Shown here one piece after another: positions 2,701 to 10,429 of a stretch of DNA of 10,429 nucleotides (the first letter of the stretch is position 1; each line of letters begins with the position of its first letter). Origin of the DNA: Vulcanimicrobiaceae bacterium (GTDB lineage Bacteria; Vulcanimicrobiota; Vulcanimicrobiia; Vulcanimicrobiales; Vulcanimicrobiaceae); the NCBI GenBank assembly GCA_046262595.1, contig JBHEMM010000044.1, forward strand, positions 264-10,692. Direction: 5' to 3'. The position numbers were made by a program, and so were the translations under genes. Under the pieces are notes generated by a model. It saw only the letters and a program-made list of their open reading frames with translations. It searched no databases and had not been told where the DNA came from.

Positions 2701-2792
2701 ACTTCTGATTCTATAGTACCCGGACGGGCCAGCGTGACCAAGCGTTTTGCAGAGCAAAGGGCCGCAGAGTGGGTGCGCGGAACCGCGATTGC

Positions 2793-4196
2793 ATGACTAC
2801 AACGGCGTCCGACCCGCGCGCGGGCATGCACTATTACAGCGATGCTCTGGACGCGGTCGGCCACACGCCGCTTATCCGGCTGCACAAGGTAACCGACGGC
2901 GCGAAGGCGCTGATGCTGGCAAAAGTCGAGTACATGAACCCCGGCGGAAGCGTCAAGGACCGTCCGGCGGTGCACATGCTCAAAGCGGCCGAAGCCGCCG
3001 GACTGCTTAAACCGGGCGGAACGATCGTTGAGGCAACCAGCGGCAACACGGGCTCCGGCCTTGCGATGGCGGCGGCTATCCGCGGATACCGCTGCATCTT
3101 GGTCATGCCCGACAAAATGTCCAAAGAGAAGGTCGATTTGCTGCGCGCGTACGGGTCCGAGGTGGTCGTAACGCCGACGAACGTACCGAACGATTCTCCG
3201 GAGTCGTACTACGGCGTCGCGAATCGTCTGGCTTCCGAGATTGCGGGCGCCTTTCAGCCGAATCAATTTCACAATCAGGACAATCCCGAAGCGCATTACT
3301 ATTCCACCGGTCCCGAAATTTGGGAACAGACCGGCGGACGCATCACGCACTTCGTAGCGGGCATCGGCACGGGCGGCACGATCTCCGGCACAGCGCGCTA
3401 CCTGAAAGAGAAAAATCCGAAGATTCACGTCGTCGGCGCGGATCCCGAGGGTTCGATCTACTCCGGCGATACACCGAAATCGTATGCTGTCGAAGGCATC
3501 GGTATGTCGTATCTGCCTGAAACGGTCGATTTGAAAGTGATCGACGAAATGGTGCGCGTTTCCGATCGCGATTCGTTTTTGATGGCGCGCCGCATTACGC
3601 GCGAGGAAGGCTTGCTGGTGGGCGGCTCCTCCGGAACCGCTGCCGTCGCCGCAGTGAAACTCGCGCAAACGCTTCCCGAAGATGCGGTCATGGTAGTGCT
3701 GCTGCCCGACTCGGGGCGCGGATACATGTCCAAAATTTTCAACGACGAGTGGATGATCGCCAACGGCTTTATTGCTGAAGGCAAGCGGCGCGCCGTCGTG
3801 GGCGACGTGCTGCGCAGCAAACGTCCGCTGCCGCCGCTCATCACAGTAAAGGACACCGACGTCGTCAAAGACGCGCTCGAGCTGCTGCGCAACTACGCCA
3901 TCTCGCAGATTCCCGTCATGCGCGGGCACGAACAAATCGGCAGCATCAACGACGTCGCCGTCATGCAAGCCGTGTTCGATCAGTCCGATATCCTGCATAA
4001 GCCCGTGAGCGAAGTGATGGGACGGCCGTTCCCCGTTTTGGATCAAAGCGAAGAGATCGAGCGCGCGTATAAGTTACTGACGTTGGCCAATTCGGCGGTG
4101 GTGGTCACGGACGAAGACGAACCAATCGGCGTGCTCACGCGGCAAGACATTATCAGCTATCTCTCTGCCTCCAGCGAAACGCCGATACCGGAATAA
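2793..4196 (+). CDS. cbs: Cystathionine beta-synthase (PLP fold type II) with C-terminal tandem CBS (Bateman) domains, 467 aa
   Basis: GHTPL, EYMNPGGSVKDR (PLP lysine), EATSGNTG, GIGTGGT, VEGIG, GGSSG, PDSGRGYMSKIFND, then CBS-domain patterns (ISQIPV..., PIGVLTRQDII). Start chosen at ATG 2793; ATG 2826 is an alternative. Confidence 0.93.
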   Translation: MTTTASDPRAGMHYYSDALDAVGHTPLIRLHKVTDGAKALMLAKVEYMNPGGSVKDRPAVHMLKAAEAAGLLKPGGTIVEATSGNTGSGLAMAAAIRGYRCILVMPDKMSKEKVDLLRAYGSEVVVTPTNVPNDSPESYYGVANRLASEIAGAFQPNQFHNQDNPEAHYYSTGPEIWEQTGGRITHFVAGIGTGGTISGTARYLKEKNPKIHVVGADPEGSIYSGDTPKSYAVEGIGMSYLPETVDLKVIDEMVRVSDRDSFLMARRITREEGLLVGGSSGTAAVAAVKLAQTLPEDAVMVVLLPDSGRGYMSKIFNDEWMIANGFIAEGKRRAVVGDVLRSKRPLPPLITVKDTDVVKDALELLRNYAISQIPVMRGHEQIGSINDVAVMQAVFDQSDILHKPVSEVMGRPFPVLDQSEEIERAYKLLTLANSAVVVTDEDEPIGVLTRQDIISYLSASSETPIPE

Positions 4197-4253
4197 CGGT
4201 GCTGCCGGTTTTTTCTTGCCGCGACCGATGCGATCGGAGGCGCTTTGCTGACC

Positions 4254-4291
4254 GCGCCCGTGAACGGCAAGTTCGCCGGCGCCGCGTTTTA
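4254..4291 (+). terminator. Intergenic stem-loop followed by a short T run (possible terminator, attenuator or processing structure)
   Basis: GCGCC (4254-4258) pairs with GGCGC (4278-4282), then a C.C mismatch, then GTGAAC (4260-4265) pairs with GTTCGC (4271-4276, one G.U), loop GGCAA. It is followed by CGCGTTTTA. Confidence 0.3.
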
Positions 4292-4348
4292 CCAACCGCA
4301 CGCGTACCGCCCGCACCCCGTCTTCGGACACCATTGAAGGACGACCAG

Positions 4349-5518
4349 ATGAAGTTCAGCACGAAAGCGATTCACGCGGGCCAAGGCGCCGACCCGGCGA
4401 CGGGGGCGACGATCGTTCCCATCTATCAGACCTCGACGTACACGCAGGACGCGGTCGGCGCCCACAAAGGCTACGACTACAGCCGCTCGATCAACCCCAC
4501 CCGCGTCGCGCTCGAGACGCAGCTCGCGGCGCTGGAGGGCGCGCAGTACGGATGCGCGTTCGCAAGCGGGATGGCCGCCACGGCGGCCGTGATGAACATT
4601 TTAGCATCGGGCGATCACGTCGTCGCATCGGACGACATGTACGGCGGCACGTACCGCCTTTTCTCAAAAGTGCTCGAACGGTACGGCCTGCAGTTCACGT
4701 ACGTGGATATGGCCGATGCGAATGCCGTGCGCGCCGCGATACGCCCCAACACGAAGCTGTTTTGGATCGAAACGCCGACCAATCCGCTGCTTAAATTGAT
4801 CGACATTCGCGCCATTGCAGATCTCAAGACCGCCGGCGCAATCGTCGTTGTCGACAACACATTTGCGACGCCGTATTTCCAGCAGCCCCTGGCGCTGGGC
4901 GCCGACGTCGTCGTGCATTCGACGACGAAATATATCGGCGGGCATAGCGACGTGGTCGGCGGCGCCGCGCTCACGAGCGACAAAGCGCTGTACGAAACGA
5001 TCAAATTTCACCAGAACGCAGCCGGCGGCGTCCCGGGACCGCACGACGCCTGGCTCACGATGCGCGGCGCGAAAACGCTGGCCGTGCGGATGCGCGAACA
5101 TGCATCGAACGCGCAGGCTGTCGCGGAGTTCCTCGAAGCGCACGCGGAGATAGACCGCGTGTACTACCCCGGTTTGCCCTCGCATCCGCAGCACGCGTTG
5201 GCGAGAAGGCAGATGACGGGCTTCGGCGGCATGGTGTCGTTTACCCTAAAAGGACCGCAGCAAAGAGCGATCGATTTTGCGAATCAAATGCAGTATTTCA
5301 GCCTCGCCGAGAGCTTGGGCGGCGTTGAATCGCTGATCTGCCATCCCGGGCGCATGACGCACGGCTCTATTCCGAAGGAGTTGCGCGAAGCGCGCGGTGT
5401 CACCGACGGGCTCTTACGGTTGTCGGTGGGGATCGAAGATATCGAGGATTTGATCGGCGATCTTCGCGGCGCGCTGGAGCGTGTTAGTAGCGGTACCTTG
5501 GATACGCTACGGCGCTGA
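4349..5518 (+). CDS. Cystathionine gamma-lyase/gamma-synthase (Cys/Met metabolism PLP family; MetB/MccB-like), 389 aa
   Basis: MKFSTKAIHAG start, PIYQTSTY, YDYSRSINPT, FASGMAA, YGGTYR, ETPTNP, DNTFATP, HSTTKYIGGHSD (PLP lysine), AESLGGVESL, LLRLSVGIE. SD GAAGGA at 4336-4341. The position after cbs favours the gamma-lyase role. Confidence 0.93.
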   Translation: MKFSTKAIHAGQGADPATGATIVPIYQTSTYTQDAVGAHKGYDYSRSINPTRVALETQLAALEGAQYGCAFASGMAATAAVMNILASGDHVVASDDMYGGTYRLFSKVLERYGLQFTYVDMADANAVRAAIRPNTKLFWIETPTNPLLKLIDIRAIADLKTAGAIVVVDNTFATPYFQQPLALGADVVVHSTTKYIGGHSDVVGGAALTSDKALYETIKFHQNAAGGVPGPHDAWLTMRGAKTLAVRMREHASNAQAVAEFLEAHAEIDRVYYPGLPSHPQHALARRQMTGFGGMVSFTLKGPQQRAIDFANQMQYFSLAESLGGVESLICHPGRMTHGSIPKELREARGVTDGLLRLSVGIEDIEDLIGDLRGALERVSSGTLDTLRR

Positions 5519-6041
5519 CGTTGGCAAGATCGGCGCGCGCGTGCCGATCGTCAACATTTCCGTAACGCGACGTTTCCGCGAGGGTGACGCCGCGCACGCC
5601 GTCGGCCCACAGGTAGCGGAAGCTCGAAACCTGCGCGAAGCCGCTGCCGACCGTGACTTCTTCCCACACCGCGGGCATGCCGTTCGAAAGCTTTGCATCG
5701 CTGCGTTTGATGAAGGCCCCGTCGGCACTGCTGCGCGTATCGTTGTCGGACGTCATGGCGAATGCCGCGGCAGTCCCCTCAAAGTTGTCCATCGTCAAGG
5801 TGATCGCCGTCGCGTCTTGAGTGCCCGGATTTTTCACATAGACCGCAACGACGCTCTTTTGCTCGAACGTGCGGGGATCGTGCGGCGGAATCGGCACGCG
5901 GCGGAAGCCAGCGGGCGGCGTGAACGACATCGCCGGATCGTTGTACGTGTTGGCGTCGTCCGCGGCGCGGACGCCGGTGCAAAGCGGTGCCAGCATGGCA
6001 AGCAAGGCGAGCGTCAAAAGGCCCAGGCGTCGGATCGGCAC
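5484..6041 (-). CDS. Secreted hypothetical protein, possibly PsbP/Mog1-like fold, 185 aa
   Basis: GTG start 3 nt after the hydrolase stop. Sec signal peptide MPIRRLGLLTLALLAMLAPLCTGVRA|A. The YNDPAMSFTPPAGF opening resembles PsbP/Mog1/DcrB-like proteins; the fold call is tentative. Confidence 0.75.
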   Translation of the reverse strand: MPIRRLGLLTLALLAMLAPLCTGVRAADDANTYNDPAMSFTPPAGFRRVPIPPHDPRTFEQKSVVAVYVKNPGTQDATAITLTMDNFEGTAAAFAMTSDNDTRSSADGAFIKRSDAKLSNGMPAVWEEVTVGSGFAQVSSFRYLWADGVRGVTLAETSRYGNVDDRHARADLANVSAVAYPRYRY

Positions 6042-7145: not shown

Positions 7146-10100
7146 ATGATTCGCGGCATTTCTCTGCGCGGGGCGGTCAGCCTGAACACGATCACGATGA
7201 TCGGCGTCGGCCCGCTCATCACGATACCTCTCGTCCTGCAAAAGCTTCCCGGGACGATCGCGCTCGCTGGCTGGGGGCTAGGCGCCGTGGTGGCGTTGTG
7301 CGACGGTTTGGTTTGGGCGGAGCTCGGGTCGCAATATCCAGGTGCGGGCGGGACCTATGCGTATCTGCGCGATATCTTCGGTGCGCACGGCGCCGGGCGG
7401 ATGATGGCGTTTCTGTATAACTGGCAGTATTTTTTGAGCGCATCGCTGATTATCTCGACCGGCTACATCGGCTTCTCGCAGTACGCCGCGTATCTGTATC
7501 CGCCGCTGGCTGCAAACGCGCATCTCACGCAAGCGCTGGCGGTGACGATCGGCGTGGCGAGCATCGCGCTGGTGTACCGCCGCATCACGGCCGTCGCGCG
7601 CACCGGTACGGTGCTCGCGTTCTTTGCGATTGGGACGCTGCTCGTCGTCGGCGCGGCGGGGTATTGGAACGGCACGCCCGCGTACCTGTTCTCTGCCGGC
7701 GCCGGCGGCAGCATCGCGCCGTTTTCGCTGGGCTTCCTGTACGGCTTGGGAAGCGCGCTCTACATCACGCTTTACGATTACACAGGATACGCACAGATCG
7801 CGCTCGTGGGCGAGGAGGTGCAGCGCCCGCATCGCACGCTGCCGCTCTCGATCGTCATCTCGGTGCTTGCCGTGATGGCGCTGTATCTGTTTTTGCAGGC
7901 GGGCGTTCTTTCGAGCATCCCCTGGCACACGCTGTTCGATGCACACGGCGTGCCGACGCCGCAGGCGCAGTTCGTCGGTTCGACCGTCGTCGAACGAGCG
8001 TGGGGCGCGCATGCCGCCGTTGCCGTTACGCTGCTGGTGCTGGTGACGGCGTTCGCTTCGCTTTACGGAAATCTGGTCGGTGCGGCGCGCGTGCCGTTCG
8101 CCGCGGCACGCGATAAGGCGTTTCTGCCGGCGTTCGCGCGGCTTCACCCGCGCGGCGGCTTTCCGCACGTCGCGCTGCTCGCTGTAGGCGCCGTTTCGCT
8201 CGCCGGGTGTTTCTTCTCCCTGGATCTCGTCATTGCGGCGTTGATCGCCGCATCCATCTTGGGCGGCGCTTTGCCGCAGATCGTTGCGCTCTTCGTCCTG
8301 CGTTCGCGCGGCGTACATGCGCCGTTCCGCATGTGGCTCTTTCCGTTGCCCGCGCTGGTCGCGTTGGCGGGATGGATGCTCGCGTTTTGCAGCACCGGCG
8401 CGATCGCGATGTGGCTGGGAGCGCTTTGGCTGGCTGCGGGCGTCGTCGTTTATCTCACGCTTGCGCGCAGTCAGCGCGCGTGGCCGTTCGCCGTTGCGGC
8501 AGCACTTTCGCTGCTGGCATTCGTTCCCGCTCCGACGACTGCGGCGCAAAAGCCGGCGTTCGTCTACGCCGCGTCATTCTTTTACGAGCGGGTTCCCCGC
8601 AAACAATGGGCGCCCGCTTTGCGCGCCTACCGCGCGATGGGGATCAACACGATCGACCTGTACACGATGTGGAATTGGCACGAACTTTCCGACGGCGATT
8701 ACGACTTCAACGGCCGCACGGACCCGCAGCGCGATCTGCGCGGCCTGCTGCGCCTGATCCACGACGACGGCTTTGCGCTGATCGTGCGTCCGGGCCCCGT
8801 GATCCGCAACGAATGGCGCAACGGCGGCTATCCCGCCTGGCTCTTACGGCGTCGTGAGTATGCGATGCCCTTGCGCGACGTCCTCGAGGGCCGCTATCCC
8901 GCAACAGCTACGTTTCAGAACGCGCACTCCGATGCAGCCGCGGCGCAATGGATGGGCAACCTCACCCACATGCGATACGCTGCGCGATGGCTGCAGCGTG
9001 TACTCGCGCAGGTGCGGCCCTACCGCGACGACATCATCGCGGTCGCGCTCGACGACGATCAGGGCGCGTACATCGACAACGACACGTGGCCCGGTGCACG
9101 TTTTCACCGGTACCTGCGCTTTCTGGCCCGCAGCGTTCACCGCACGCTTCCCGGCATGCCGGTTTTCATCAACACCTACCAAATGAAGGTGACCGCGTCG
9201 GCGCCGGTGTGGGCGTGGGGCAACTGGTACCAAAGCGACGCGTATAGCATCGGCGAGCATGACCGCGCGCAGATTGAGTTCTCCACCGGCGTGCTGCAGA
9301 CGCAAGTTGCCGCACGGCCCGTCATGGTCAGCGAGTTCCAAGCCGGATGGCTCCAAGGCGCCGATCAATCGCGTCCGCGCGCCGCGGATCCCGCCGACAC
9401 GACGCTCGCGCTGCACACGTTCCTGCAGATGGGCGCGCACGGCGTCGTCAACTTTCCGGTGCAGGACACGCTTAACCCGGCCGGTTGGGAAGCGCCGTGG
9501 ACGAACGCGTTTTACAGCTGGGACGCGGCGCTCTCGGTGCAGCTCACGCCGCAGCCCCGATACGCAGCCACCGCGCGTTTCGGCGCGCTGATCGCGCGCT
9601 ACGGCGACGCGCTCGCCCAAACGCAGCCGGCTGCAGATGCGGCGATTGCCTACATGACGAGCGCTTATGATGTCCGTCGGCTCTCCAATACGCAGATCAT
9701 GCAGATCGCGCAGGCGACACTCTCGGCACAAGAAGGCTGCCGTGCCGCTCATATCACGTGCGCGCTGGTGGATCTGCGCTACGTTCCGGACGCGGAGCTG
9801 GCAAAGCGACCGGTGCTGATCGTGCCGCCGTCCGGAACGACGCTGCCGTACGTGAAGGGCGTTGCCGCGCGTCTTGCAGCATTCACGCGCAGCGGCGGGC
9901 GCATCGTTTCTCGCGCAGACCGAGCGCACGTTCGCCGCCCACACGCCGGCGGCATTCCCGACGCGGCGCTGCTCGTATCGCGTGACGGACGGATTGCGTT
10001 TCTGGATATCGTCAATTACTTATCGCGTCCGCTGCACACACCGCGCGCGCGCGTTTGGTCCGGTTCGTTTTCGGCCGTTGTTCCGGCGCAAACCGTGTCG

Positions 10101-10429
10101 CCGCGCGATGCGCGCCTGATCGCGCTGCGCGCGCGTTCTGCTGCGGTTGCGCTGCCCGCACTTCCCCTCGTGCGCCCAATTGTGGGAAGCATCCCGCTGC
10201 GGGCGGATAGTTGGGTCGCATCGATCGACGGCGGCAGCGCGCTTGCGTCGCAAACGGCGCGCCTGATCTACGCTCCGTGCGCCGGGGGGCGGGTATTCGT
10301 TTTCGAAGATCGTCAACACCGGGATAACTTATTCACCACGATCGGGGCGCTGCGCGACGCGTGGACGCCGGAATTCCCGCCCTCGCCGCGCGACTACATC
10401 GCAGCGTACACCCACCCGATTGCGGCGGG
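7146..10429 (+). CDS. APC-family permease fused to a GH35-type glycoside hydrolase plus further C-terminal domains (at least 1094 aa; 3' end outside the window; absent from the ORF track)
   Basis: Manual translation from ATG 7146 shows no stop to the window end. Residues 1-~445 carry APC motifs (MIGVGP, AELGSQYPGAGGTYAYL, YDYTGY...GEEVQRPHRTLP, ARVPFAAARD, LHPRGGFP, PFRMWLFP). From ~8553 there are GH35 motifs (YERVPRKQW, GINTIDLYTMWNWHE, DYDFNG, RPGPVIRNEWRNGGYPAWL, SEFQAGW, YSWDAAL). Confidence 0.92.
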   Translation, partial: MIRGISLRGAVSLNTITMIGVGPLITIPLVLQKLPGTIALAGWGLGAVVALCDGLVWAELGSQYPGAGGTYAYLRDIFGAHGAGRMMAFLYNWQYFLSASLIISTGYIGFSQYAAYLYPPLAANAHLTQALAVTIGVASIALVYRRITAVARTGTVLAFFAIGTLLVVGAAGYWNGTPAYLFSAGAGGSIAPFSLGFLYGLGSALYITLYDYTGYAQIALVGEEVQRPHRTLPLSIVISVLAVMALYLFLQAGVLSSIPWHTLFDAHGVPTPQAQFVGSTVVERAWGAHAAVAVTLLVLVTAFASLYGNLVGAARVPFAAARDKAFLPAFARLHPRGGFPHVALLAVGAVSLAGCFFSLDLVIAALIAASILGGALPQIVALFVLRSRGVHAPFRMWLFPLPALVALAGWMLAFCSTGAIAMWLGALWLAAGVVVYLTLARSQRAWPFAVAAALSLLAFVPAPTTAAQKPAFVYAASFFYERVPRKQWAPALRAYRAMGINTIDLYTMWNWHELSDGDYDFNGRTDPQRDLRGLLRLIHDDGFALIVRPGPVIRNEWRNGGYPAWLLRRREYAMPLRDVLEGRYPATATFQNAHSDAAAAQWMGNLTHMRYAARWLQRVLAQVRPYRDDIIAVALDDDQGAYIDNDTWPGARFHRYLRFLARSVHRTLPGMPVFINTYQMKVTASAPVWAWGNWYQSDAYSIGEHDRAQIEFSTGVLQTQVAARPVMVSEFQAGWLQGADQSRPRAADPADTTLALHTFLQMGAHGVVNFPVQDTLNPAGWEAPWTNAFYSWDAALSVQLTPQPRYAATARFGALIARYGDALAQTQPAADAAIAYMTSAYDVRRLSNTQIMQIAQATLSAQEGCRAAHITCALVDLRYVPDAELAKRPVLIVPPSGTTLPYVKGVAARLAAFTRSGGRIVSRADRAHVRRPHAGGIPDAALLVSRDGRIAFLDIVNYLSRPLHTPRARVWSGSFSAVVPAQTVSPRDARLIALRARSAAVALPALPLVRPIVGSIPLRADSWVASIDGGSALASQTARLIYAPCAGGRVFVFEDRQHRDNLFTTIGALRDAWTPEFPPSPRDYIAAYTHPIAA

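Follow-up and report, generated by a model that had tools for sequence, protein, structure and literature searches.

The 10,429-nucleotide stretch of DNA analysed here, called the window below (Vulcanimicrobiaceae bacterium, assembly GCA_046262595.1, contig JBHEMM010000044.1, positions 264 to 10,692 of the forward strand), ends in a genuine gene fusion: one uninterrupted frame encodes an APC (amino acid/polyamine/organocation) carrier followed by a glycosidase of family GH35. The junction between the two parts looks like a Sec-type signal peptide. We tentatively read the product as a precursor, consisting of an amino-sugar importer and an exported exo-glucosaminidase that would be cut free by signal peptidase I.

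The carrier and the glycosidase form one gene

The fusion open reading frame (ORF; 7146..10429, + strand) starts at ATG 7146 and extends beyond the window; over 7146-10427 it encodes 1,094 residues, without a stop and open through the window end. An initial annotation of this DNA had claimed such an uninterrupted APC-GH35 frame, of at least 1094 codons, and the claim was borne out by translation, codon usage and homologs. The ORF tool places the start at GTG 6684, overlapping an esterase gene of the opposite strand; homologs favour ATG 7146. On extension of the contig, as the annotation had proposed, the stop was found at contig position 11323, about 630 bases past the window and beyond a scaffold gap of 155 N. 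Because homologs show one residue at the gap position, the corrected length is about 1,253 residues. The fusion frame scored best for codon usage in 11 of 11 intervals of 300 bases, junction included. Both domains that had been expected in the full ORF were found above the Pfam gathering score of 27, AA_permease_2 (PF13520) at aa 17-399 (E 1.5e-27, 97.1 bits) and Glyco_hydro_35 at aa 469-572 (E 5e-31, 108.8 bits), the latter match covering only positions 7-106 of the 319 of its profile.

Among the best 120 of 819 homolog matches, the 120th being the window's own protein, both Pfam domains were present in 119 of 119 homologs, at 50-72% identity. Named sources in this set are nearly all Eremiobacterota, Vulcanimicrobiaceae or Baltobacteraceae; the two others are Dormibacteraeota and Binatia. 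The list is ranked by score and limited by length, and is therefore no measure of how frequent the fusion is. In 301 genomes of the phylum (six of them flagged as unpublished, on which no other result rests), at least one half of the gene was matched in 203 of 206 genomes of the window's family versus 10 of 94 in other families, where the matches are to the carrier half. A junction-spanning profile was then used on 80 of the 206 family genomes, that is, the first 78 positives listed and two of the three negatives. The fusion occupies one stop-free frame in 59 of these 80 (61 with two that are cut by contig ends near the junction), while enzyme and carrier are distant separate genes in 12 and neither was found in 2. 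Genus g4 has the fusion in 30 of 30 genomes. Since the architecture thus recurs in other genomes, where the annotation had suggested looking for it, and both the two-domain homologs and the junction-spanning matches agree, the frame can be neither an assembly artefact nor the result of a stop lost recently. The two parts were never seen as adjacent separate genes in the genomes examined, apart from one frameshifted case (L055, in genome G164), where the frame breaks just past the junction through assembly error or pseudogene formation.

A separate enzyme made from an internal start was considered and rejected. The initial annotation had seen no obvious internal Shine-Dalgarno (SD) motif with a start, and this held: the junction of the window gene has no in-frame start codon, and an in-frame start with an SD-like motif was found at the junction in 0 of 34 fused loci, a weak test because SD motifs are rare in this genome (174 of 1,089 called genes). 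No start is conserved in frame across these loci. Promoter-like sites at the junction numbered 0, and terminator-like sites 3 against 2.7 expected.

The junction resembles an internal signal peptide

The junction (aa 440-467; 8463..8546, + strand) was delimited by motif statistics, a signal-site matrix, the AlphaFold2 (AF2) model and the leaders of stand-alone enzymes. It consists of a basic n-region, a hydrophobic helix (446-458) and a Pro turn, and signal peptidase I is predicted to cut behind Ala466 or Ala467. The AF2 model, with a predicted TM-score (pTM) of 0.63 and a mean predicted local distance difference test (pLDDT) of 88.6, shows 12 long helices, the 13-residue helix 446-458, a linker at 459-467 with pLDDT <50, and the barrel. 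All the features of a Sec signal cut by signal peptidase I were found here: basic n-region, short h-region, Pro turn and small residues at -3 and -1.

These features recur in 118 fused proteins (of the 120, P0059 and P0067 were omitted as having no WPF motif in the expected range). The n-region carries a charge of +2 or +3 in 106 of them, the h-region has a median of 13 residues, and hydropathy is lower at the junction than in transmembrane helix (TM) 12, 1.71 versus 2.15. By a home-made matrix, used in place of SignalP and trained on 100 N-terminal leaders that a rule had picked from this genome, the best signal-site score of the carrier plus junction region falls inside the junction in 101 of 118 proteins. 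Of the 118 proteins, 95 carry the motif P-x(0-2)-A-x-A, where shuffles gave 29 +/- 4; for the non-redundant segments the figures are 43 of 61 and, in shuffles, 14. A Pro/Ala-rich control linker had it in 18 of 112, against 14. The motif persists regardless of the low mean identity of the linker, 36% as compared with 60% and 70% in its flanks.

Stand-alone copies of the enzyme at the same locus begin, in the copies checked, with Met and a hydrophobic leader, and full-length Acidobacteria-type relatives have, by eye, mostly leader-like N-termini. Genera g20 (in two of three), g21 and g23 have stand-alone enzymes whose leaders are very short and low-scoring; in these loci (L038-L042, L049, L050) about 9 hydrophobic residues stand with no basic n-region, and export would be doubtful or non-canonical. 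One further stand-alone enzyme (L037) has an N-terminus that resembles the first residues of the carrier, possibly a deletion scar.

APC carriers usually have their N-terminus inside the cell. On that topology the basic tail would be cytoplasmic and the extra helix would therefore lead outward. Two things speak against a cytoplasmic enzyme, which was rejected: this topology, with its 12 helices, basic tail and extra helix, and the leaders that the stand-alone copies carry. The glycosidase is most likely periplasmic, because of the signal features at the junction, the leaders of stand-alone copies and the outer membrane reported for a cultured, diderm member of the phylum (PMC9758169). Cleavage by signal peptidase at the junction, freeing the enzyme, is probable. 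All five genomes tested have three signal peptidase I genes in tandem (G000:C3:3789-5685 and four others), and one of the three might specialise in internal sites.

The glycosidase is a GlmA-like member of clan GH-A with an Asp-Asp motif

The GH35 barrel (clan GH-A; aa 469-830, 8550..9635, + strand) was identified by Pfam, PDB sequence matches, fold search and AF2, and has eight strands in a predicted (beta/alpha)8 structure. One domain of the alpha/beta type and the first of the beta type follow (9636..10130, + strand), in a three-domain layout of the GlmA/GH42 type assigned by VIA-align to 5GSM. The start of an extra C-terminal beta-rich domain (10191..10429, + strand), seen in the AF2 model and matching no Pfam family, is cut by the window end; an Atlas search with this domain gave unnamed clusters at up to 0.90 and named ones at 0.82-0.83, as leads only. 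The barrel is closest to archaeal GlmA and to the Ignavibacterium glucosyltransferase SGT. The best PDB sequence matches of the enzyme are four GlmA structures, and in the fold search the Z scores were nearly level for GlmA 5GSM (30.3, with a root-mean-square deviation (rmsd) of 3.4 over 493 aligned residues), SGT (30.0) and an archaeal GH35 (29.6). The second half of the barrel, searched alone against PDB sequences, gave chance matches only.

Residues were mapped to GlmA by sequence alignment through one GlmA homolog from a Bathyarchaeota cluster, not from superposed coordinates. In this alignment four GlmA residues have kept equivalents: Tyr53 (Tyr506), Glu103 (Glu556), Asp178 (Asp637) and Glu347 (Glu730). 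The last is the nucleophile on beta-7 (9333..9335, + strand), invariant in 120 of 120 rows; the pair Asp637-Asp638 (9054..9059, + strand), located where beta-4 ends, is equally so. Asp638 takes the acid/base position of GlmA Glu179; the ungapped match reads D-D-D versus D-D-E in GlmA. The canonical GH35 acid/base Glu after beta-4 is thus absent, and the canonical nucleophile Glu on beta-7 is present. Nowhere is the protein more conserved than at the nucleophile and the active-site loops, where mean identity is 70%. According to PMC6566704, GlmA Asp178 selects the free amine of glucosamine, D178N is inactive, galactosidases carry Asn at this position, and in the GH2 glucosaminidase CsxA the acid/base is Asp469; SGT carries Asn175 at the position of Asp178 (PMC8861115). 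From this alignment we infer a retaining GH-A exo-glycosidase, with Glu730 as nucleophile and Asp638 as acid/base.

Assignment as a beta-galactosidase was rejected, the Asn-Glu acid/base motif being replaced by Asp-Asp. The window's genome has a separate canonical GH35 beta-galactosidase gene with an E-N-E motif, in an operon (L109:4565-8251, contig C23) with galactokinase-like and GalT-like genes. A second tier of Asp-Asp proteins comprises stand-alone enzymes of 1,100-1,350 residues, most with leader-like N-termini and belonging to Acidoferrales where named.

The carrier belongs to the APC superfamily

The carrier (aa 1-447; 7146..8486, + strand) was delimited by PF13520, AF2, Foldseek and the C-termini of stand-alone paralogues, many of which stop a few residues after the WPF motif that ends the domain here. 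It has 12 helices in a LeuT fold with a broken TM1, modelled mostly at pLDDT >90, and matches y+LAT1, LAT1, xCT, AdiC and BasC in Foldseek with TM-scores by target of 0.76-0.83. The unwound segment of TM1 carries the motif N-x3-M-x-G-x-G-P (7185..7214, + strand), with N14, M18, G20, G22 and P23 invariant, and nearly all stand-alone paralogues share it; the LAT motif is G-S-G-I where this carrier has Pro. TM6 carries Y-D-Y-x-G-Y (7773..7790, + strand), in which the invariant Asp211 is a candidate amine-binding residue. Every NCBIfam model scored far below its cut-off for the carrier. Fructoselysine, the FrlA substrate raised in the initial annotation, is not specially indicated: the fusion protein scored 52 bits with the FrlA equivalog, whose cut-off is 800.

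Neighbours of the carrier family point to amino sugars

Stand-alone carrier paralogues of the phylum adjoin a sugar isomerase (SIS) gene like NagB-II/GlmD in 14 of 27 loci; the best models for this gene are the GlmS C-terminus, NagB-II and GlmD, all below cut-off. In 20 wider carrier loci, a GH20 hexosaminidase was found in 4, PfkB with GH4 in 2, and a large protein with a carboxypeptidase-regulatory domain, by its size probably TonB-receptor-like, in 7. A conserved cassette follows stand-alone carriers in loci L087-L091, L093 and L106, which span two orders; it encodes proteins of about 1,170 residues (carboxypeptidase-regulatory domain), about 490 (no family) and about 690 (F5/8 domain).

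For more distant carrier relatives, the 80 top-ranking loci out of 581 confirmed in GTDB were used; most are from Acidobacteriota, and being related they are not independent cases. A protein of about 920 residues is encoded, usually directly upstream of the carrier, in 51 of them, and two representatives of it contain a PIG-L de-N-acetylase domain. GH4 and/or PfkB genes occur in 17 of these 80 loci. The top score of the GH4 neighbours is to the alpha-galactosidase MelA, and one stand-alone carrier adjoins galactokinase and GalT. In one Acidobacteria locus (L143:3524-5953) a PfkB kinase and a GH4 glycosidase share an apparent single frame of 809 residues. The neighbours of 80 Acidobacteria-type enzymes are mostly housekeeping genes, with a similar SIS gene in 10 and a DegT-type aminotransferase in 8.

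In the window's genome the NagB-II-like SIS gene follows an S13 D-Ala-D-Ala peptidase gene. The run (L107:9563-13943, contig C7) also includes lysA, with an amidase-like gene opposite, and suggests a wall-recycling cluster. Five fused genomes each have 3-5 CE4 deacetylases, and all five contain NagA-like genes just under cut-off and PF01182 matches that may be NagB or 6-phosphogluconolactonase. A weak GH20-like gene (G000:C2:77685-78218; open frame of about 650 residues) occurs once in each of the five, a possible partner enzyme. Because the gene is retained almost universally at a fixed locus, and in view of the SIS, deacetylase and GH20-like findings, salvage of de-N-acetylated wall or surface glycans would be favoured over bulk chitin use.

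Within the window, a divergent esterase gene (PF00756; 6045..7118, - strand) marks the fixed locus and is context only; it is divergent to the enzyme in 23 of 23 stand-alone loci and 30 of 34 fused loci. Beside it lies a 185-residue protein (5484-6041, - strand) whose N-terminus is leader-like and which matches no family in Pfam or NCBIfam, and a look-alike stands beside the esterase elsewhere. Two genes at 2769-5518 (+ strand), presumably one for a cystathionine beta-synthase-like protein with CBS domains and one for a cystathionine gamma-lyase-like protein, belong to the conserved locus and recur in 17 and 19 of 19 stand-alone-enzyme loci. Further upstream, 5-7 kb before the fusion gene, are two genes (4-2369, + strand) that we take to be rapZ/yvcJ-like and yvcK/glmR-like. 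Such genes sense GlcN-6-P and UDP-GlcNAc in other bacteria; they recur in 11 and 16 of the same 19 loci, probably as housekeeping synteny.

The fusion appears old and its carrier half repeatedly lost

A stand-alone glycosidase was found in 15 of the 80 family genomes. A second carrier copy occurs in 0 of 59 fused genomes versus 12 of the 15 with a stand-alone enzyme; in 8 independent pairs, fusion and stand-alone carrier went in opposite directions in about 6.8 and in the same direction in 0 (median p 0.016). On the enzyme tree (60 rows; L112, though fused, was left off as too short) the fused or split state changes 13 times, 8 of these changes being forced by starred branches. On the carrier tree (61 rows, L103 and L106 left off) it changes 4 times; most stand-alone carriers fall in groups that mix genera and include a family of another order, and two fall inside a fused group. 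Both are quick trees whose base is unresolved. Carrier and enzyme distances correlate at Mantel r 0.70 in fused proteins (n=33) versus r 0.25 in split genomes (n=17).

The simplest reading of these trees would be an old fusion whose carrier half was repeatedly deleted, mostly where a stand-alone paralogue had arrived; alternatively, several independent fusions may have occurred. On either reading the enzyme is independent of the tether, and fused and stand-alone carriers appear interchangeable, so the operons of the latter are informative on the substrate. One genus (g28) has a divergent stand-alone carrier between the cystathionine lyase and the esterase (L102:7820-9091), and the enzyme was not found in its genomes searched with both halves, except G231.

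A precursor cut by signal peptidase and the alternatives

We propose, as a plausible but tentative account, that the 12-helix carrier inserts co-translationally into the inner membrane, and that the basic cytoplasmic tail and short hydrophobic helix act as an internal Sec signal for the glycosidase of about 790 residues. Signal peptidase I would cut at A-x-A and free the enzyme into the periplasm, where Asp637 would select a free 2-amino sugar. The enzyme could then trim glucosamine off the non-reducing ends of short de-N-acetylated glycans, either wall turnover products or chitosan-type oligomers. The carrier would import the amino sugar, or a small glycoside of it, and the imported sugar would be phosphorylated and either reused in wall synthesis or deaminated.

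Several findings weigh against this account. At the junction, the site in the window itself reads P-T-T-A-A and so falls short of a strict A-x-A; 21 of 118 proteins have an h-stretch of 18-20 residues, enough for an anchor; and the leaders that trained the matrix were chosen by the A-x-A rule, so that its -1 and -3 counts are partly circular. In the enzyme, the Glu-to-Asp change at the acid/base could reduce hydrolysis or eliminate it, the -1 subsite departs from that of GlmA (Cys101/Gly102 to Arg554/Asn555, Glu306 to Asn693, which is Asn or Asp, and Tyr379 to Pro771), and the GlmA model of NCBIfam (NF041127) gives 106.6 bits against a cut-off of 1,500. As to context, the fusion's own neighbours (esterase, cysteine genes, an aroA-like gene) are uninformative on sugars. 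The SIS gene scores far below the NagB-II and GlmD cut-offs; of the 80 family genomes only 31 were found to have it, and of the 30 from genus g4 none. Neither an APC of the carrier family nor a PIG-L gene was found in the 80 Acidobacteria-type enzyme loci, and as suppliers of chitosan oligomers five fused genomes contained PIG-L in 0, GH46 in 0 and GH18 in 1. Finally, 3 of the 80 family genomes have the enzyme with no carrier detected, and 2 the carrier alone.

Some of these points raise the possibility, which we regard as somewhat unlikely, that export and processing are as proposed but the substrate is not glucosamine: galactosamine, muramic acid, a 3-amino sugar, a sugar-amine conjugate or a neutral glycoside might be used, or the enzyme might be an SGT-like transglycosylase. 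The four changed subsite residues, among them Arg554, invariant in the fused alignment, would fit such a substrate, as would the near tie of SGT with GlmA in fold searches, the MelA-like GH4 neighbours with the one galactokinase/GalT locus, the DegT-type aminotransferases and the 49 of 80 family genomes in which the deaminase-like gene was not found. On the other side, every member of the fused set has Asp where GlmA has Asp178, PMC6566704 gives this Asp as the discriminator for a free 2-amine, and the de-N-acetylase and NagB-II-like neighbours both indicate a de-acetylated hexosamine. The initial annotation had pictured a combined hydrolysis and import module in which a tethered glycosidase releases an amine-bearing sugar. 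Its amine-bearing sugar stands as the likely shared substrate, on the GlmA-type Asp and the neighbours of the carrier family; its tether, as stated, is not supported, because the linker looks like a cleavable signal peptide and the carrier half is repeatedly lost or lacking.

A tether would nevertheless persist if the junction helix were an uncleaved 13th anchor, holding an active periplasmic glycosidase over the carrier to which it hands the amino sugar. This seems unlikely to us. The retention of the fusion in 59-61 of 80 genomes, the co-varying distances of its halves and the longer junction helices agree with it, and a site after 13 helices may be poorly reached by signal peptidase. However, the cleavage motif is kept far above shuffles, the fused/split state has changed often on the enzyme tree, and the linker is variable and of low confidence in the model.

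Far less likely, the GH35 domain may be weak or dead and serve as a periplasmic sugar-binding or accessory subunit, like inactive SLC3 ectodomains. The Asp at the acid/base in every row could be taken in this sense, as could the TIM-barrel ectodomains of rBAT and 4F2hc, b0,+AT-rBAT having shown no glucosidase activity (PMC7159911). The conservation of the nucleophile and active-site loops, the persistence of the enzyme without the carrier in some genomes and the Asp acid/base of CsxA (PMC6566704) argue otherwise. A frozen accident, in which a carrier gene landed in frame before a secreted glycosidase and the two, cut apart, serve unrelated pathways, is if anything still more improbable: the parts are never adjacent separate genes in the genomes examined and either can be missing alone, but both families independently neighbour amino-sugar genes and the fusion is the majority state across many genera.

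Comparison with known systems

Transporter-enzyme fusions and processed precursors are known kinds. We found no description of an APC-glycosidase fusion, of amino-sugar APC carriers or of Eremiobacterota glycosidases in the main texts of the open-access literature, in line with the annotation's remark that no APC-GH35 fusion had been characterised; neither the fusion combination nor the Asp-Asp subgroup of GH35 nor the APC subfamily linked to amino sugars appears to have been described. This subgroup is common to Eremiobacterota and Acidobacteriota, its proteins are currently annotated 'amino acid permease' or 'beta-galactosidase', and it is a likely bacterial periplasmic exo-glucosaminidase. 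The APC subfamily is widespread, and its neighbours indicate an amino sugar, not an amino acid. Because one or both parts are nearly universal in the soil family Vulcanimicrobiaceae, the gene is probably the mark of a core route for nutrients or for cell-wall recycling, and could suggest growth substrates for a barely cultured group.

With GlmA the enzyme shares the three-domain, GH42-like organisation and the Asp before the acid/base, together with the equivalents of Tyr53, Glu103 and Glu347. It differs in its Asp acid/base, changed subsite (Cys101, Gly102, Glu306 and Tyr379 all being replaced), extra C-terminal domain, export signal and carrier fusion, with a structural identity of only 16-21%. 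On present evidence it would work like GlmA, yet it falls outside GlmA proper, also by the NF041127 score. The Ignavibacterium beta-1,2-glucosyltransferase IaSGT (GH35; 7VKW series) has the same fold; it is cytosolic, carries Asn175-Glu176 and transfers glucose (PMC8861115), whereas the present enzyme has Asp-Asp and a leader. The carrier shares the 12-helix LeuT fold of the LAT/APA-type proteins BasC, xCT, y+LAT1, AdiC and FrlA, and departs from them in its structural identity of about 20%, its G-x-G-P and Y-D-Y-x-G-Y motifs and its sugar-gene neighbours.

The SLC7-SLC3 transporters (LAT1-4F2hc, b0,+AT-rBAT) likewise combine an APC carrier, one extra helix and an outside TIM barrel of glycosidase fold, the ectodomains of rBAT and 4F2hc being related to maltases and amylases (PMC7159911). 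Here there is one chain and no separate disulfide-linked heavy chain, the barrel is GH35 and not amylase-like, the nucleophile is kept and a cleavage site is probable, so that the likeness is one of analogy, not homology. Were the chain wholly or partly uncut, which we consider doubtful, it would be a single-chain bacterial counterpart of SLC7-SLC3, in which a 13th helix holds an Asp-acid/base glycosidase that feeds glucosamine to a new amino-sugar APC subfamily, and processing could switch it between tethered and free forms.

The operons of the stand-alone paralogues also resemble E. coli frlABCD, with its APC sugar-amine carrier FrlA, SIS deglycase FrlB and PfkB kinase FrlD, in the set of APC, SIS and PfkB genes. 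Against this likeness, the FrlA model gives 52-77 bits versus 800, the SIS gene matches GlmS-C/NagB-II/GlmD with no FrlB model listed, and frl is without a glycosidase.

To our knowledge, the only comparable case of a protein split by signal peptidase is the cytochrome b-c1 precursor FbcH of Bradyrhizobium, a polytopic protein followed by an internal signal and an exported domain, which is cut into two proteins. The respiratory subunits of FbcH stay in one complex, whereas the carrier and enzyme described here have been repeatedly separated by evolution. The APC-GH35 fusion is a candidate bacterial polyprotein in which signal peptidase would separate a transporter from an exported enzyme.

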